Below, in pieces: positions 2,841-59,574 of a stretch of 64,000 nt of DNA. Source of the DNA: an uncultured delta proteobacterium. Lineage in GTDB: Bacteria > Desulfobacterota > Syntrophia > Syntrophales > Smithellaceae. A program made the position numbers and the translations under genes. Numbering within the stretch: the stretch's first letter is position 1; every line of letters begins with the position of its first letter. The notes beneath the pieces were generated by a model that saw only the letters and a list, made by a program, of their open reading frames with translations, ran no database searches and was not told where the DNA came from. Where the stretch lies: assembly GCA_963753975.1 (NCBI GenBank), contig CAVWEH010000001.1, positions 288,001 to 352,000 of the forward strand, written 5' to 3'.

Positions 2841-2908
2841 ATTTCTCTAATAAATTATTTTCCGTGCGGCAATATATCACGAAGAGTTATTTCATCAGTG
2901 GCGTAAAG

Positions 2909-3064
2909 GAGTCTCATCCCGCTGGCCTCGGCCACGGGATCAATTCGGCCAACAAATTTCAGCGCACTTCCACCGCTTTGCGGGATAGTTCGTCTAACAG
3001 ATTTCAGTGCGCTTCGCTTCTAAAATCTGGGACTCACTACGTTTTGGAGATTTGAGTCTCATTA
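2909..3064 (-). repeat. Nested GA-mismatch hairpin repeat (outer unit plus inner unit starting at 3039)
   Basis: Reverse complement is near-identical to 10148-10306 apart from two ~20 bp insertions present there. Confidence 0.9.
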
Positions 3065-4260
3065 ACAAAACAGCGGGGGTCTTCCGCCAGGTAGTCTCCA
3101 CTGTAAGCTAAAGCGCGACCGCGGCAGCCGCCGCAAACAGTTTTGTAATTGCATTCGCCGCAGGCACCTTTGAGTTTATCTTCCCGCCGCCGCAAATTTT
3201 GGAATACCGGCGCATCCTTATATATTTCACGGAAACTTTTATTTCTGATGTTTCCCGCATTGACCTCCACAAAGGGACAGGGCCAGACATCGCCGTTAGC
3301 TTTGATGTAAACAAAACCTCTGCCTGCGGCGCAGCCGTGAAAAACTTTACCCGCCAGTTTTAACAGCGAACCGTTCCGAACGCCGTTTTTTTCCAGAATA
3401 TAGGGCCAATATTGCGGTCCGGCAACCGGCTCGATAATGGTTCTAGCGATTTTTTGTTTAGCGGCAATAAGTTCGCTTAAATATTTATTCGCGCTTTTCT
3501 TTAAAGTGGCTTTTTCTATCTTTTCTCCCCGGCCGACGGCGACCAACTGATACATCAGCATGATGCCGGCGCCGCAGCTGTCGGCAAAATCAATGAGCTC
3601 GGGTAAGTGCGGCATATTGTATTCCATCGCCGTTGTATTGATCTGCAAAAGGATCCCCGCTTTTTTTGTGGCCTCAATTGCTCTGAGCGCCTGATCAAAA
3701 GCGCCGGGCTTGTTCCTTACCAAATCATGAATTTCGGGATTGGCGGCGTCAATGCTGATGGCGTTGCAAACAACGCCATGATCCTTCAACTTAAAAGCCA
3801 TTTCTTCGTCAATTAGTGTGCCGTTGGTGGCAATAATATTGGCCAGACCGGCTTGCTGGGAATGCTTAAGTAAAGTGAAAATATCCGGTCGTACCAGCGG
3901 TTCACCGCCGGTAAAGATCAATGTTCTGAATTCGCTGATTGCGGCCAGCATATCAATGAGTTTTTTTCCTTCATCGGTGGTAAGTTCATTCGCGGCAGTC
4001 TTGCCGCTTATCGCATGACAATGAATACATCTTAAATTACAGGCGCCAGTCACCTCCCAGGCCGGATGTCCCGGGTAACCGATGCAGCCCATGCCTAAGG
4101 AACCGTTGGCTGCGGGTATGGAGGGGAAACCGTGCCGGAAAAGCCATCCCGGAAAATGCCGCCAGCGATTTAAGTATCCCATGAGTAAAACGCTGCCCAT
4201 TTGTCTTACCAAAAGGGAAGGGGGATTATAAAACCGTTTCGTTTTCTTTTTTGATTGCAT
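3037..4260 (-). CDS. Radical SAM/SPASM domain protein (AhbC/AhbD/NirJ-like)
   Basis: CNLRCIHC motif, FTGGEPL, C-terminal GCAAG..PCPF..CGEC...CGGCR..A...DPRC SPASM cysteines. Confidence 0.88.
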   Translation of the reverse strand: MQSKKKTKRFYNPPSLLVRQMGSVLLMGYLNRWRHFPGWLFRHGFPSIPAANGSLGMGCIGYPGHPAWEVTGACNLRCIHCHAISGKTAANELTTDEGKKLIDMLAAISEFRTLIFTGGEPLVRPDIFTLLKHSQQAGLANIIATNGTLIDEEMAFKLKDHGVVCNAISIDAANPEIHDLVRNKPGAFDQALRAIEATKKAGILLQINTTAMEYNMPHLPELIDFADSCGAGIMLMYQLVAVGRGEKIEKATLKKSANKYLSELIAAKQKIARTIIEPVAGPQYWPYILEKNGVRNGSLLKLAGKVFHGCAAGRGFVYIKANGDVWPCPFVEVNAGNIRNKSFREIYKDAPVFQNLRRREDKLKGACGECNYKTVCGGCRGRALAYSGDYLAEDPRCFVNETQISKT

Positions 4261-10078: not shown

Positions 10079-10146
10079 CTTTTGTTCTCCTTTCTTCATT
10101 GTTTCTTTAATGTCTAAAATATAAGGCGCAATTCCGGAATGTCAAT

Positions 10147-10662
10147 CAATGAGACCCAAATTTCCAAAACGTAGTGAGTCCCAGATTTTAGAAGCGAAGC
10201 GCATAACCTAAAGGTCATCTACGACTGAAATCTGTTAGACGAACTATCCCGCAAAGCGGTGGAAGTGCATAACCTGAAGGCCACTGCCGCTGAAGTTTAC
10301 TGGACGTAATGAGACTCAAACTTTAAAAGCGAAGCGTATTAAAGTTTGTTAGTCGAATTATCCAATAGCTAAAGGCTATTGGAAATTATCCCCGAAGCGA
10401 AGCGTAGCGGGATGAGGAGACCAGTAAGCGCAGCTTATTGGGATCAGTACCTTGGTGTAGGTCGAATTAATGAAACTCAGGTATTGCAAGCGAAGTGCAG
10501 CAATATCTGCTAGCTGTAATGAGACTAAAACTTCAAAAGCAAATAACCTAAAGGTCACTATAGGCGCATTGAAGTTTTTTAGCCGAATTATCCAATAGCC
10601 AAAGGCTATTGGAAATTATCCCGCGCCAGTCGGGGTTGATCCTACCAGAGGTGGAATTGATC
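10147..10662 (+). repeat. Cluster of nested GA-mismatch hairpin units (starts 10147, 10172, 10307, 10468, 10517) with three micro-insertions
   Basis: Repeated TARTGA-NNC...AAGCGAAGYGCA...GAAYTATCC units with self-complementary 10 bp arms. Confidence 0.92.
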
Positions 10663-10723
10663 ACGATTTTGAGGTATTAAGTTTTGGGTTCAGGGCTTGC
10701 ACAAACGGTTAATGCCCCTTACT

Positions 10724-32486: not shown

Positions 32487-32587
32487 ATCCCACGTCGTCG
32501 TAGATGCCCTTCAGGGTGCTTCGCTTCTGGGATTAATTCGACTTTGAAATTTTTCTGTACTTCGTTTGAAAAATTTTAGTCTCATTG
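32487..32587 (-). repeat. GA-mismatch hairpin unit with micro-insertion (32499-32518)
   Basis: Reverse complement CAAT-GA-GACT-AAAATTTTTC-AAACGAAGTACA-GAAAAATTTC-AA-AGTC-GA-ATTA. Confidence 0.85.
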
Positions 32588-32600
32588 AAAGGAGGTTACC

Positions 32601-33804: not shown

Positions 33805-34026
33805 TGGGGCTATTATCCCTAGGCTTCTGAATATATTGTTAAGCTTTCGGCTTTTTCGGGCAGGGAATATGATTAAACATGTGGCGTCTCCTTATCGGGA
33901 ATGCGCCTCCGGTAAACAGCCCGCAAAGGTGTAAAATTGCCACGGCTCCTGAGAGTCGCCTCACAACGACAATTAAGATGCAAGACGTTTGTCGATAATT
34001 TTATTTAAATAGGGAGTGACACTTCT

Positions 34027-34594
34027 ATGAATTCAAAATTGGCGATAGGGGATAAAGCTCCCGATTTCAAATTTAAGACGCCCTGGGGTGGTGAGTTAAA
34101 TTTTTATGATGCTGCCGGCAATAATCCGGCTGTTTTGATCTTTCTGCGCTATTACGGATGCCCGGTCTGTCAAATGGAAATGGCAAAAATAAAACAGGAA
34201 ATCGATCTGGTCAGGCAAAAAGGTGGGCGCGTATTTGTGGTTCTGCAAAGCGCGTCGGAAACGATTGCTTCTTTGAGAATAACGTTCAGTAGGGTGGACG
34301 GATTCTCGAAAAGAGACGATTTCCCCTTCAAGATTATTTGTGACCCGCAAGGGAAAGTTTTCCAACTCTATGGTGTGGAAGCAGGCGGTATAATCAAATA
34401 TCTGCATCCCGCCGGTCTTGATTGCGGCAATCAAGGCTATCAGTCGCGGCTTTAAGCATGGTAAATTTGAAGGGAAAGAAACACAACTTCCTGCCGCATT
34501 TGCTCTTGATGCAAAGAAAGTTATTAAATACGTTCATTATGGGGAAAGCATCGGCGACATACCTTCGCTCACAAAAATACTGGCTGACATATAG
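34027..34594 (+). pseudogene. AhpC/TSA (peroxiredoxin-like) protein, frameshifted near 34420
   Basis: GDKAPDF, FLRYYGCPVC; continuation IAAIKAISRGFKHGKFEGKETQLPAAF...HYG lies in another frame. Confidence 0.7.
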
Positions 34595-34733
34595 AAGATT
34601 CGGCAATATTCGGGGGTTGATGCAATTAAATTAATAGCAAGGGAAATCCCCTTCGATCCCTTTTTCACCCTAAAGAGTACGCGAAAAAAGGGGAAGTAAA
34701 AGGCTGCTCAAAATCCCCAGCGATCCGGCTTTT

Positions 34734-34791
34734 TACCCTGATAACCTTAATAACCTGAAGGTCACTATAGGGTCACATTAGGTCATCTGCG
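34734..34791 (+). repeat. Self-nested micro-element array (3 left halves then 3 right halves)
   Basis: TACCCTGA TAACCTTAA TAACCTGAA GGTCACTATAG GGTCACATTA GGTCATCTGCG. Confidence 0.85.
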
Positions 34792-35215
34792 GCCGGAATG
34801 ACAGTGGTAGATTTTAGATCGTAGCGGCGCATAAGGTGCGATTCGCAATGACAACCCGGGGCATATCACAATATTATTGAGGTTAATAAATATAATAGCC
34901 TGGTTAAGTGTTTAAAAAGATTCTCCAAGACGCCCGCCCGCAGAACAGCTTTTTAAAATCATCAGGGGTATTTTTTCCGAAAGGAAGGCCCAGCTTGTTT
35001 CTCTCCTTCCAATCAAAGCTTTTATTGATAAAAATATTCTATTCTGGAGCAAATATTGCATTATTTTTTACAAGGGAAGATGTAGCTGCCGTCAGCCCAG
35101 ATAATGATGGCACTTTCACAATTCTCGAGCTGATTGTTTATCTCGCCATCTATTTAATCTGACGTGACCGGGAGCTGACTAAAAAATGACGATTTTTAAA
35201 ACCAAGGAGTTAAAT

Positions 35216-35623
35216 ATGTTAAAAAAAATAACCTGCGGTGCTTGTCTATTTTTCGCCGTAAATATTATCGGTGGATGTAGTATTCTGCCATTCATTCCGG
35301 TTGTGGGGACGGTCTATGATGGCTACATTGGTTGGAAAGGACACCAGGCTACCAAATATTATGCTGAGGATGTAGGCACTATACACCGGGCGGTAATGAG
35401 GTCTTCCCAGCAGTTGCATTTAAAAATAGTCCGTAACTCTACAGACGCGAATAGACATTTTCTGGAGCTAAAATGCAAAGAGCCTTTGCAGATTGAAATT
35501 TTGCCATTTGAAAAAAAGGTTACCAAAGTTATGATCAAAATAAACCTGGGCGGTGATAAGCAGTTCGCCGATTTTTTTTATCATAGGATTGACGCCAATT
35601 TAGCTAAAAGCCGGCGGGCATGA
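35216..35623 (+). CDS. Hypothetical lipoprotein (DUF3568-like)
   Basis: IIGGC lipobox-like signal; AAGGAG before ATG 35216. Confidence 0.65.
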   Translation: MLKKITCGACLFFAVNIIGGCSILPFIPVVGTVYDGYIGWKGHQATKYYAEDVGTIHRAVMRSSQQLHLKIVRNSTDANRHFLELKCKEPLQIEILPFEKKVTKVMIKINLGGDKQFADFFYHRIDANLAKSRRA

Positions 35624-35727
35624 GAAAAGTATGACTAATCGCGGTACAATCTTTATCTTTGACAATTGGCGATATTAAACGTGTATCGTGTCTCGTGAAG
35701 CGTTGGGTGTGTCGGGCTAAAAGTATT

Positions 35728-35796
35728 TAACCTAATAAACTAAATAACCTAAAGGTCACTATAGGGTCACTATAGGGTCACGCGAGGCCATCTGCG
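35728..35796 (+). repeat. Self-nested micro-element array (3 left halves then 4 right halves)
   Basis: TAACCTAA TAAACTAAA TAACCTAAA GGTCACTATAG GGTCACTATAG GGTCACGCGA GGCCATCTGCG. Confidence 0.85.
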
Positions 35797-35881
35797 ACCG
35801 GATTTCCTTTTCGGATAAGGTGTCACTAATCTCGCTAAAAAACGTTAATTATCTACGTTTTCCATCCAGATTAACGATTTA

Positions 35882-35910
35882 TTGACAAATTACCGTTAAT
35901 TTACTATAAT
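35882..35910 (+). promoter_or_regulatory. Consensus sigma70 promoter of the fic gene (probably leaderless transcript)
   Basis: TTGACA-17 nt-TATAAT; ATG 7 nt downstream with no Shine-Dalgarno. Confidence 0.8.
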
Positions 35911-35917
35911 CCTACCT

Positions 35918-36799
35918 ATGGCAACGACACATTCTGTAAAAAATCAGATTCAAGTCTTAAAAGTTCAATATGACCAGCTTTGTAAAGGGAAAGAGTCATT
36001 ACTGAAGTTGATTGATGAATCCGAACTTCCGGAAAGCGTCTTCAATTCCAATGCTATCGAAAATTCTACACTGACGCTTAAAGAGACGGAGCGCATTTTG
36101 CTGGAGATGAAAATTTCCCGCAATGTTTCGGTGCGGGAAGTTTTTGAAGCGAAAAATCTGGCGCAGGTGATGGGATACATAAAAACTAAAGTAATCGACA
36201 CTGAACTTTCAAATGAACTGATCCTGCTTTTACACAAAATGCTCATGGGGAATATTAAAGACGCTGTCGCGGGGCGTTTCCGCATCAAAGGCGAGTATGT
36301 CCGCGTCGGCACACACATCGCTCCGGCGCCGGAGCATGTGGAAAGAATGATGGAGGCAATTCTGCTGGAATTTTCTTCTGACCATGTTAATTACTTTGCC
36401 GACAAAATCGCTAAGTTTCATCTTGATTTCGAAACTGTTCATCCATTTTGCGACGGTAACGGTAGAATAGGACGCGTGATTATCAGTTATCAGCTCGCGC
36501 GCCTTGGTTTTCCCAATATTATCATTCGCGATAAAGAGAAACTGCTGTACTACAAAGCGTTCGGTGAATATAAAAACTCAAAAAATACAAAGATAATGGA
36601 AAAAATTATCACTCTGGCTTTAACGGAATCGCTGCATAAAAGAATTGCTTACTTGCAAGGCGATACTATAATTCCAGTGGCGGATTTTGCCAAAACAAAT
36701 AATAAATCGATTCATGCGTTACTTAACGCCGCGCGCAGACAAACCGTTCCCGCTTTTCGGGAAAAAGGAGTTTGGAAATTCGGCAATTACAAAGAGTGA
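35918..36799 (+). CDS. Fic family protein
   Basis: HPFCDGNGRIGR catalytic motif; N-terminal inhibitory SNAIEN motif. Confidence 0.93.
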   Translation: MATTHSVKNQIQVLKVQYDQLCKGKESLLKLIDESELPESVFNSNAIENSTLTLKETERILLEMKISRNVSVREVFEAKNLAQVMGYIKTKVIDTELSNELILLLHKMLMGNIKDAVAGRFRIKGEYVRVGTHIAPAPEHVERMMEAILLEFSSDHVNYFADKIAKFHLDFETVHPFCDGNGRIGRVIISYQLARLGFPNIIIRDKEKLLYYKAFGEYKNSKNTKIMEKIITLALTESLHKRIAYLQGDTIIPVADFAKTNNKSIHALLNAARRQTVPAFREKGVWKFGNYKE

Positions 36800-36831
36800 A
36801 ACGCAAATCGTGAAGCGTCATTCGAAGCGGT

Positions 36832-38175
36832 CTAGTATCCGGTCTTGAAATATTTTTCGGCGATTCCCTGGGCGGCGATGATTCCGGAAATTCCTGCTCC
36901 CACAATTCCGCGGCTTTTGCCGGTGCCGTCACCAGCTACAAAAATACCTTTTACATTTGTTTCCAAATTCCGGTTTGCAGGGAAATGAGTGTCAAAGAAT
37001 TTTATTTCCGGCGCATATATTAACGTTGACGGGTGCAAAATACCGGGCACTATTTTATCCAGCTTCTGGAGCGATTCCCAAAGATTATCCATGATACGAG
37101 CGGGCATACCCAGCGCTATATCCCCCGGTACGGCGTTATATGTTGCCCTGCACACTTCAAAATGGCGGATAGCGCTGTCAAAAGTCGCTGCAGAGCTTCT
37201 TCTTCCTTCCCGGAAATCACCAATCCTTTGTACAATCGGTTTGCCTCCGCCTAAAAGAAAAAATTGCCGGGCGATCATTTGACCGAACTCGGTTGTGTCG
37301 GAAAACGGCTTGGTCAACGCGACAGTATTGATTAGCGCAAAATTTGTATTTTCCGTTTTCTTGCCGGAAAGGGCATCCCCATTGACCAGCTTGAAATCGA
37401 AATAATTTTCCACTCGCACCCGGCCGCCCGGGTTCGTGCAGAACGTTCTGACCTTATCTCCGTGGCGCGAGGTCGTGAAAATAAATTTAGGATCATAAAC
37501 AATATCCGTCATCGGATCGTAAAATTTTCGGTTCAATTCAATCCGGATTCCCACATCGATGGGTCCGAAATTATGTTGGATGTGCAACTCTTCCGCGATA
37601 TCCCGAAACCAGTAAGCGCCGCTGCGTCCCGGGGCAGCCAGTATGAATCCGGCGTTATAACTGATTCGTTTTTTATTGCGGTTGCAGATAAGACGAAAGC
37701 CGCCGCCGTCGAGTTTTTCAATTGAGGATACTTCTGTTTCCAGGAAGAATTCTGTTTTTTTAAGGTAGCCTCTTAAATAATTTACGACGGCTTTTCCGTT
37801 GTCGGTTCCCCAATGCCACTGCTCCGGCGCAATAAATTGAGCGCCGTGCTCGCCGGCGATATTCTTTATAACTTTGATTTTTTCATTTTTGTCAATGAAT
37901 GTTACCTGCTTACAGCGGGGAAATCCGACGAATATTTTTTTAATCTCGCTCATCAATTGCCGGGCTTTATCTTCATCGATTTGCAGTTCATTCAAATCGA
38001 GACCGACGCGGCAGTCGAAGTTAAGTTTGCCGTCGTTTAACAAGCCGCCGGCCGGATATGAGTGTCTATCGATAATGGCGATTTTGTCTATTCCCAAACG
38101 CGTAAGCCAAATCGCCGCGAAAAGTCCGGCTGGTCCGGATCCGATAATTATTACATTATAAGTTTTCATTTTCAT
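36832..38175 (-). CDS. FAD-dependent oxidoreductase
   Basis: IIGSGPAG, APGRSG, VRTFCTNPGG, FVAGDG.G.SRG. Confidence 0.88.
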   Translation of the reverse strand: MKMKTYNVIIIGSGPAGLFAAIWLTRLGIDKIAIIDRHSYPAGGLLNDGKLNFDCRVGLDLNELQIDEDKARQLMSEIKKIFVGFPRCKQVTFIDKNEKIKVIKNIAGEHGAQFIAPEQWHWGTDNGKAVVNYLRGYLKKTEFFLETEVSSIEKLDGGGFRLICNRNKKRISYNAGFILAAPGRSGAYWFRDIAEELHIQHNFGPIDVGIRIELNRKFYDPMTDIVYDPKFIFTTSRHGDKVRTFCTNPGGRVRVENYFDFKLVNGDALSGKKTENTNFALINTVALTKPFSDTTEFGQMIARQFFLLGGGKPIVQRIGDFREGRRSSAATFDSAIRHFEVCRATYNAVPGDIALGMPARIMDNLWESLQKLDKIVPGILHPSTLIYAPEIKFFDTHFPANRNLETNVKGIFVAGDGTGKSRGIVGAGISGIIAAQGIAEKYFKTGY

Positions 38176-38218
38176 AAATTAATCGCATTTAATCGGGGAC
38201 GATTGCACCGGCTCAATA

Positions 38219-38301
38219 ATTGAAGGTCTCCGCGTCAAGCCGCGGAGAATCTTCGATTCTTAAGAAACAATATTATTCGGTATTCGCTCGCTACCGAATT
38301 C
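38219..38301 (+). mobile_element. Shorter copy of the 15972-16078 element (second hairpin absent)
   Basis: ATTGAAGGTCTCCGCGTCAAGCCGCGGAGAATCTTCGATTCTTAAG...GCTCGCTACCGAATTC. Confidence 0.7.
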
Positions 38302-38734
38302 GGTACCTCTTCGAAGCTTAGCAAATGGCGTTTCATAATTCAAGCCTCCATGCCGGAGAAGATGATTATATTCAAATAAAAAGTTGTCAGAGGGTCGTCT
38401 GCGTCCGCCCGGCGAATGCTGGGTATTCCGGGGCCCGTATCTCGTGAAGCACAAAATACCAGGGGCCGGCTCTATTTAATTTTCTTGCCAGTTACGGTTT
38501 TCCAGCCGGTTAGCTTTACAATATCGCCGCTTATCTTCGAAAGTGTTCCATAATCGGATAATTTGCGGCCATTATGTAATTGACATGCAGGGTCGTTTTC
38601 TCTATAGTTCGTTGCCGGAATAAGATCTAGCCGAAATAAAATGTGGACATTTTGAACGAAGAGACAAATATTAACAAAATCCTATCATTGATATTTCTCA
38701 TCGCCAATGCTCCCGGAAATAACAAAAGGTACAC

Positions 38735-59364: not shown

Positions 59365-59390
59365 AAAAAAATGTCGCTCCGAAACTTTAT

Positions 59391-59568
59391 TTGTGAAACT
59401 CCAATTCCGAAAGCGAAGCGTATAACCTGAAGGTCACACGTCGGAATTGGCAAGTTGTAATGAGACCCAAGCTTCAGAAACAGAGTGCGCTGAAGCTTGC
59501 AGGTCGAATTATCCCGCGAAACGGAGGGCATGAACCATAAAGCGTGCTTCGGGGTTCATGCCCGTGGG
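59391..59568 (+). repeat. Nested GA-mismatch hairpin cluster between acn and icd (outer 59391, micro-insert 59422-59440, second unit 59458)
   Basis: CCAATTCCGA/TCGGAATTGG and CAAGCTTCAG/CTGAAGCTTG perfect arms. Confidence 0.88.
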
Positions 59569-59574
59569 TGATTT

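Follow-up and report, generated by a model that had tools for sequence, protein, structure and literature searches.

A self-nesting unit of 18–21 nt at hairpin loops in a Smithellaceae genome

Results

Two deep nests in the window

The stretch analyzed here, which we call the window, comprises 64,000 nt of an uncultured member of the Smithellaceae (Desulfobacterota; assembly GCA_963753975.1, contig CAVWEH010000001.1, positions 288,001 to 352,000), and belongs to a genome, G000, of 2.43 Mb in 6 contigs that is 95% complete. It carries copies of a short unit of 18–21 nt, some of which lie inside one another. In nest A (34734..34791, + strand), three deep, the left halves TACCCTGA, TAACCTTAA and TAACCTGAA are followed by the right halves GGTCACTATAG, GGTCACATTA and GGTCATCTGCG, so that the left-left-left-right-right-right arrangement given in a preliminary description of this DNA reads exactly as described. 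The outer unit is made up of 34734-34741 and 34781-34791 (TACCCTGA..GGTCATCTGCG), the middle unit of 34742-34750 and 34771-34780 (TAACCTTAA..GGTCACATTA), and the inner unit, which is uninterrupted, is TAACCTGAAGGTCACTATAG at 34751-34770, ending in a CTATAG tail (34765-34770); all three are on the + strand. The nest occupies the loop of a host hairpin at 34724..34797 (+), which consists of a 5' arm TCCGGC (34724-34729), a loop remnant TTTT, the nest itself and a 3' arm GCCGGA (34792-34797). The host arms pair in the predicted fold and covary in the related genome G006 (CCCG..CGGG).

A second deep nest, overlooked by the preliminary description, lies about 1 kb downstream. Nest B (35728..35797, +) has three left halves, TAACCTAA, TAAACTAAA and TAACCTAAA, and four right halves, GGTCACTATAG, GGTCACTATAG, GGTCACGCGA and GGCCATCTGCGA, two neighboring right halves being identical. 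Its likely host arms on the same strand are TCGGG (35712-35716) and CCGGA (35798-35802) in the flanking sequence, and the orthologous upstream regions of G005, G006 and G011, as far as a weak upstream alignment shows, hold an apparently empty hairpin, TCCGGC-ATAC-GCCGGA.

The unit and its landing point

The core consensus TAMCCTRAAGGBCA is matched seven times in the window at up to one mismatch, against 0.19 matches expected, and none of 100 shuffles gave seven. The whole genome holds 71 exact matches and 111 copies at no more than two core mismatches. An insert consists of a 14-nt core, TAACCTRAAGGTCA, and a tail of 4–8 nt (4–7 nt in units of 18–21 nt), and the core can form a mini-hairpin of 3–5 bp (ACC/GGT) with a TRAA loop. 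Units are of A-type (TAACC..GGTCA) or C-type (TACCC..GGGCA). Most copies have A-T at core positions 3 and 12, with C-G in variants, and 101 of the 111 have A.C at positions 2 and 13 of the top strand. Recurrent tails define subfamilies of 18 nt (CAAG, CACG), 19 nt (CGCGA), 20 nt (CTATAG, TCATGA) and 21 nt (TCTRCGA). Several tails are palindromic hexamers, namely CTATAG, CCATGG, TCATGA and CACGTG (for example 34765-34770 of the window and loci L119, L123 and L136), and some look like the upstream host flank copied in inverted form (GGAGTG..CACTCC is one example), in a register that varies among examples. In another genus of the family, g5, the left half is TGACCT (L168, L166, L172), which makes a perfect 5-bp stem, TGACC-TGAA-GGTCA, from the pair that is A.C on the top strand in the genus of the window.

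The limits of the unit were set by comparing filled with empty copies of two larger host hairpin repeats, a comparison that is not circular. H1 has the form AATGAGAC-stem-12-nt loop-stem-GTCGAATTATCC and H2 the form GTGAAACTCCAATTCCG..CGGAATTGG, and both usually have 12-nt loops. Empty loops of that length number 83 in H1 and 53 in H2; filled loops measure 30, 31, 32, 33 or 34 nt, and those with a doubly nested unit 48–50 nt. In both hosts the 12 loop bases stand unbroken 5' of the unit, and the insert adjoins the first base of the 3' arm. The exception is the CTATAG subfamily, which is placed after loop nucleotide 7, at the 3' edge of the GAA turn in a GCGAAGC mini-hairpin. Inserts have an invariant 5' end (TAACC) and follow a 5' flank whose last base is nearly always A, and the junctions permit 1–2 nt of microhomology. 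Orientation is close to uniform, forward and reverse units numbering 35 and 1 in H1 and 16 and 0 in H2, in lists that overlap by at least two loops. No target-site duplication was found in the filled H1 and H2 loops, nor at the junction between the G006 and G000 states of nest A described below. Across the genome, a flanking stem of 5 bp or more encloses 86 of the 111 copies; with the downstream flanks permuted, 200 runs averaged 52 such copies and never exceeded 65. The unit is added whole, in one orientation and without target duplication, at the boundary between a hairpin loop and its 3' arm. The preliminary description had been right in portraying it as far smaller than a MITE (miniature inverted-repeat transposable element).

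The host repeats have features of their own. Their 12-nt loops are mostly AAGCGAAGCGCA-like, with two AAGCG pentamers and GCGAAGC within (for example 10196-10203 and 10321-10332 of the window); this heptamer is an unusually stable DNA mini-hairpin. The stems of H1- and H2-type repeats carry compensatory changes, and the wobble pairs in H1 stems are without strand asymmetry (19 G.T against 13 A.C).

Nesting within the genome and between relatives

In the unit's own mini-hairpin, the boundary between the TRAA loop and GGTCA is the same kind of site as the landing point in H1 and H2, so that a unit landing there leaves two left halves followed by two right halves. Nesting is the landing of new units inside resident units, giving the L-L-L-R-R-R order of nest A, and reaches a depth of four in relatives. 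Three lines of evidence show this: a difference in depth between orthologs, the order in which unlike halves are stacked, and the occurrence of like resident units both alone and with a unit inside. The numbers of left and right halves agree with it.

Half counts were obtained by walking outwards from each of the 111 cores and tallying left and right halves, in a set not chosen by nest pattern. The counts (left, right) were (1,1) in 91 copies, (2,2) in 14, (3,3) in 2, (2,1) in 3 and (1,2) in 1, two of the four copies off the diagonal being degenerate (2,2) nests. In this genome, left and right counts correlate strongly.

Nest A differs in depth among its orthologs. It is three deep in G010, as in the window, and the more distant G006 ortholog reads TAACCTAAA|GGTCAC, without exactly the inner 20 nt (TAACCTGAAGGTCACTATAG, 34751-34770) and with no repeat at the junction. 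The filled state of G000 and G010 is TAACCTTAA + (TAACCTGAAGGTCAC(T/C)ATAG) + GGTCAC. A gain is more parsimonious than a precise loss, because the extra 20-mer is a CTATAG-subfamily unit that is also seen at other places, in H1 loops. With the upstream flank of nest A, a metagenome search found no matching locus. With a conserved downstream motif, GGCAYATCACAATAYTATYRAGG (34860-34882), it found 14 loci, one of them G006-like with a depth of two (contig L189, TAACCTAAA|GGTCAC), one with a different three-deep nest 5' of the same motif (contig L188) and 12 free of nests; none of these 14 is a same-population variant of nest A. The motif itself lies 5' of an open reading frame (ORF) at 34908-35162, is kept in the 14 metagenome contigs with otherwise unrelated upstream sequence, and may be a promoter or leader element.

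Where A- and C-type halves are mixed in balanced nests, a left A or C is mirrored by a right T or G: 21 of 22 pairs fit nested pairing, as against 13 of 22 for parallel pairing. Among the five order-informative nests, four are fully consistent with nesting and none with a parallel arrangement. L138 (ACAA/TGTT, four deep), L135 and L139 (both CAA/GTT) show this mirror order, and the middle layer in G006 and L188 is a mini-hairpin of another kind, CCAC..GTGG. The same types of resident unit (for example with tails CGTCACCG, TCTGCGA and CACGT) are found both alone and around an inner unit, and the host loops concerned are many and unrelated. The comparison of single with nested units covered 54 loci in public metagenome-assembled genomes (MAGs), from 23 accession prefixes by our own count, which were found with a 23-nt double-nest string and are labeled Smithellaceae, Smithella or Syntrophaceae. 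They come from different studies and assemblers, and we reject an adapter or assembly artefact, which the preliminary description had named as a possible source of the motif. Its central proposal, the insertion of whole units into the center of resident ones, is borne out by the ortholog without the inner 20 nt, by the mirrored types and by the recurrence of subfamily units in unrelated contexts. Because folding of the nests is no better than that of shuffled sequence (z from -0.73 to -1.53), no selection is evident for one long structure that would keep the halves matched.

Tandem arrays and runs of halves

Units also occur side by side. G020 has four head-to-tail copies of the 18-nt unit, (TAACCTAAAGGTCACAAG)x4, at the loop/3'-arm boundary of H2 (L009, L010); repeated use of the host's own boundary would give this period-18 array, and slippage also could. 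Some tandem unit arrays of that genome are broken by two-base runs of N (L010, L011, L013), which we take for masking and not biology. Runs of three left halves number 40, in 22 of 116 family genomes, with none for a reversed-pattern control; runs of three right halves number 80, in 35 of 116, with four for the control. The samples of loci selected on left or on right halves are biased by the search pattern, and of the 31 right-selected nests nine are (3,3).

Distribution and turnover

Of 24 further genomes of the family, 22 contain the core; copy numbers within the family run from 0 to 185 per genome, and 16 genomes from other families of the order have 0–2 copies. The unit is confined to the Smithellaceae. 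Within the genus, seven genomes (G000, G002, G005, G006, G010, G011 and G013) have 28–66 copies and eight have 0–3, and the H1 signature is present in the same seven repeat-rich genomes and in none of the eight repeat-poor ones. Turnover is rapid. Along 64 kb of synteny at ~80–92% identity, G000 has six copies, G013 five and G011 one, none of them at orthologous sites. A 175-nt array at 59386-59572 of the window is missing from the orthologous spacer in G005, G006, G010, G011 and G013, where the spacer is 2–28 nt long, and a larger array at 10130-10690 corresponds in the same five genomes to a spacer of ~156–349 nt. Host repeats are nested in one another's loops, and congeners differ in having or lacking whole arrays. 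Among the fast-moving hairpin modules that fill the intergenic spacers of the Smithellaceae, the unit is the smallest. We found no description of such repeats in the literature searched for Smithella/Syntrophus repeats and for nested smallest-mobile hairpins.

The only reverse transcriptase found in G000 belongs to a type VI retron (C2:429058-430244; L112, 1058-2244), in which an HTH_VI gene is followed by RT_VI (PADLOC, E = 3e-23 and 2e-79). A reverse transcriptase as the writer of the unit was set aside, this single gene being part of a retron with its HTH partner.

Discussion

We read the unit as a non-autonomous, trans-mobilized and structure-directed micro insertion module of 18–21 nt, and put the probability of this reading at roughly 0.7. 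Its target would be a hairpin extruded on single-stranded DNA, perhaps on the lagging-strand template, where a structure-specific activity acting in trans would copy or join the unit in; this activity would lie outside the families searched (IS200/RAYT, IS110 and TnpB). The unit's own boundary, ..TRAA^GGTCA, in turn receives new copies and so builds nests, and repeated hits on the boundary of the host would build head-to-tail arrays with a period of 18. Once halves stand in tandem, single ones are gained or lost by ordinary slippage. The unit resides in, and moves along with, the larger modular hairpin repeats (H1, H2 and others). A more far-reaching version, which we offer tentatively and hold to be possible rather than probable, is that this is a previously undescribed form of DNA movement, in which an activity of no known transposase family recognizes the loop/3'-arm junction of any small single-stranded hairpin and writes in a module of ~18–21 nt without duplication, a module that rebuilds its own target and invades itself.

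The main rival, close to the templated synthesis at nicked hairpins that the preliminary description had in mind, dispenses with a dedicated enzyme. By replication copy-choice, a nascent strand would leave at the loop/3'-arm boundary, copy ~20 nt from another unit and return by 1–2 nt of microhomology, which would make the unit a recurrent templated insertion and not a transposon. Insertions placed precisely at a structural boundary, where a polymerase would be expected to pause, would suit such a process, as would a 5' flank that almost always ends in A with its scope for microhomology, a tail length that varies from 4 to 8 nt, a modest bias to one replication strand and the lack of a transposase of the kinds searched. 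Yet copy-choice should leave ragged ends and co-copied donor flanks, and none were seen: the 5' end is invariant, and complete subfamily units, their ends identical, are found repeatedly in unrelated contexts. Nor does it obviously require an orientation ratio of 51 to 1, and we consider this explanation rather unlikely.

Two further explanations would do without insertion or make nesting incidental. If the halves expanded separately by slippage, with selection for a folded RNA or DNA keeping their numbers and their A/C and T/G types matched, pure half-unit arrays, the two identical neighboring right halves of nest B and the frequency of unbalanced nests in pattern-selected samples would all be expected. 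We disfavor this strongly, since the difference between G006 and G000/G010 is one contiguous central block of 20 nt without a flanking direct repeat, for which slippage needs two coordinated events, and layers of different subfamilies, tails and even stems (CCAC/GTGG) are interleaved in mirror order. The folding results speak against the selection that it invokes, as do arms that are not complementary beyond the 3–5 bp core, with spacers of 8–9 nt on one side and 10–11 nt on the other, and the same units are found singly in unrelated loops. Least probable in our view, and only a slight possibility, is that the unit has a function in cis, for example as a protein-binding site or an RNA processing or terminator hairpin, and is kept by selection and nests incidentally. 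The core is strongly conserved across the family while tails vary, the prevailing A.C at core positions 2 and 13 is by complementarity a G.T wobble on the bottom strand, and that strand folds better as RNA (-2.7 against -1.1 kcal/mol). Against such a role, position is not conserved between close relatives, both orientations with respect to flanking genes occur (41 against 35, unbiased), related genomes carry anywhere from 0 to 185 copies, and an Rfam 15 scan of the whole window gave no match at gathering score; a function would also leave the nests and tandem arrays unexplained.

Several observations weigh against a mobile module itself. The polarity of the difference between G006 and the window, gain as opposed to precise loss, is argued from parsimony. 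In nest A, the outermost pair does not covary, its left half being C-type (TACCC) and its right half T-type (GGTCA); this is the sole mismatch across the order-informative nests examined. Many copies probably did not arise as separate insertions: identical tails recur with one host type and whole arrays move, so that host-plus-unit composites appear to have multiplied together, with the unit as a passenger of larger modules, and an H3-type hairpin was never found without it. The top strand of the unit lies on the G-rich strand in 74 of the 111 copies (p = 6e-4), a bias that the host repeats have in common with it (133/223 and 66/104) and that may belong to the arrays rather than to the unit. 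A mobilizing gene was also sought without success. PF01797 (the Y1 HUH domain of IS200/RAYT) has no match in G000 (95% complete), G005, G010 or G011 (98% complete), and within the genus it is present in repeat-rich (G006, G013) and repeat-poor (G004, G007, G008, G012) genomes alike and does not track copy number. IS110 and TnpB likewise had no match in G000, so that RAYT/IS200, IS110 and TnpB were all rejected as mobilizers on the strength of a genome whose 95% completeness leaves their absence unproven.

The unbalanced arrays belong among these points. Of 30 loci selected on left halves, 12 have fewer right than left halves by our own reading of the rows; L115 has seven identical TAACCTGA (period 8) with two right halves, L167 has one left half with five identical GGTCACGCGA (period 10), and some orphan halves are innermost (L134). 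Uncorrelated left and right counts had been named in the preliminary description as a refuting result. The counts correlate strongly in the window genome, but across the family the halves of some loci, such as the two just named, have expanded separately, and the test is passed in part. Half slippage acts on top of nesting. We read it as secondary, because nesting makes tandem direct repeats that can slip, and because the unbalanced arrays are homogeneous and the heterogeneous nests mirror-ordered. A plain tandem repeat describes some arrays, those of period 18 (G020), 8 and 10; the nests differ from it in their mirror order and in the central 20-nt indel.

The closest known system is that of the small dispersed repeats (SDRs) of Nostoc. 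A 2008 report by Elhai and colleagues reportedly described SDR1-8 of Nostoc punctiforme and relatives, with lengths of 21–27 nt. These are likewise dispersed elements of ~20–27 nt with a small predicted hairpin and compensatory changes, they sit in other repeats and mini-transposons, and some are reportedly nested in themselves; the loop/3'-arm rule for any small hairpin is not known to be part of their description. The host also differs, being here a member of the Smithellaceae (Desulfobacterota) whose genome is not rich in HIP1 (27 GCGATCGC sites), and our units of 18–21 nt fall slightly under the published 21–27 nt, a comparison made by description. On the scarcity of HIP1 and the Smithellaceae labels of the matching records, a cyanobacterial source of the DNA was rejected. 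Common to both systems are precise insertion at a defined point and restriction to one lineage. For SDR5, the relevant passages place the insertion in HIP1 and report SDRs to be absent from cyanobacteria other than Nostocaceae (PMC5861425), and the point of insertion is given elsewhere as precisely between nucleotides 3 and 4 of HIP1 (PMC4390886).

Short palindromic repeats are also described from the mitochondrial and plastid DNA of Volvox carteri (Smith and Lee 2009; PMC2670323), where, in the passages concerned, they average 50 nt and have long stems. Like our unit they are short hairpin repeats, with loops of 3–5 nt that are usually TAAA or TTTA, and a plastid motif, TCCCCTTTAGGGA, resembles the C-type core CCCTAAAGGG (PMC2670323). 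The likeness is probably convergence. The Volvox repeats belong to organelle genomes, and the passages on them give no defined unit of 18–21 nt and no rule for the insertion point (PMC2670323).

A comparison with the repetitive extragenic palindromes (REP, BIME and REPIN) associated with RAYT gives a similar mixture. We know of no description of self-nesting as a feature of REP sequences. The unit also lacks a RAYT-like gene in G000, G005, G010 and G011, and its stem is merely 3–5 bp. In the accounts consulted, REP elements are intergenic imperfect palindromes of ~20–40 nt that occur in high copy number and in mosaic arrays and are thought to form single-stranded hairpins (PMC3116915, PMC3733652), all of which recalls the present case, and REP loops are described as insertion targets for some IS elements (PMC1525189). 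They differ in a conserved GTAG or CGTC end tag (PMC3733652), where our unit starts with TAACC or TACCC and ends in variable tails. Membership in REP/REPIN was rejected on the end tag and on the transposase. As for inverted doublets of the REPIN kind, no systematic pairs were seen, and one close pair on opposite strands lies at C2:720563/720605.

Insertion of the IS200/IS605 type is strand-specific, hairpin-dependent and free of target duplication, and such elements end in two subterminal hairpins; MITEs have terminal inverted repeats, a target-site duplication and a size of roughly 50–500 bp. Like the unit, the palindromic elements of both classes are non-autonomous, and imperfect terminal inverted repeats are present in the host repeats H1 and H2. 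A unit of 18–21 nt is several times smaller than a MITE and lacks the target-site duplication, and on these two grounds membership was rejected. For IS200/IS605 it is too short to hold two subterminal hairpins, and no cognate transposase was found in G000, G005, G010 and G011.

How elements of this kind spread has been a standing question since the Nostoc SDR report of 2008, because elements so small cannot carry the ends that known transposases need. The present unit offers unusually clean rules: its 5' end is fixed, it lands at the loop/3'-arm boundary in one orientation and without duplication, and it targets itself. The sharp contrast within the genus, between seven rich and eight near-empty genomes, makes phylogenetic profiling for the responsible gene feasible. 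Arrays of this kind enlarge and rearrange intergenic spacers, disrupt short-read assembly and can pass for regulatory structures.

Other copies and arrays in the window

The five single copies listed in the preliminary description are all present. Three of them lie on the + strand in a composite array of host hairpin repeats (10130..10690, +), in which H1 and others are mutually nested in loops. The first, a 21-nt unit with a TCTACGA tail (10204..10224), occupies the 3' end of the loop in an H1-type hairpin; the next, of 20 nt (10270..10289), lies inside an H1-type loop and has a variant GGCCA and the tail CTGCCG; and a 20-nt unit of the CTATAG subfamily (10544..10563) divides a 12-nt loop 7|5 (AAGCAAA|unit|GCGCA). 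The fourth is a 21-nt C-type unit on the - strand (32498..32518), CACCCTGAAGGGCATCTACGA, with its core match at 32505 and covarying core positions 3 and 12 (C-G for A-T), as had been claimed of it. The last, an 18-nt unit, TAACCTGAAGGTCACACG (59423..59440, +), sits between loop nucleotide 12 and the 3' arm of an H2-type hairpin, within the composite repeat array of ~175 nt at 59386-59572.

A copy at 34666 that had been listed as a probable variant also holds up, as a degenerate single unit, CACCCTAAAGAGTACGCGA (34666..34684, +), of the C-type and the CGCGA-tail subfamily, in the loop of CCCTTTTT/AAAAAGGG; counted by eye, 16 of 19 positions are identical to the C-type CGCGA-tail unit at C4:8667. 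This copy and both deep nests lie in a segment of ~4.7 kb (33806-38567) that has no counterpart in the syntenic G013, is rearranged or partial in G011, and may be a small variable island. Further modular intergenic arrays of hairpin repeats occur in reverse orientation at 2870-3070 and 32520-32590.

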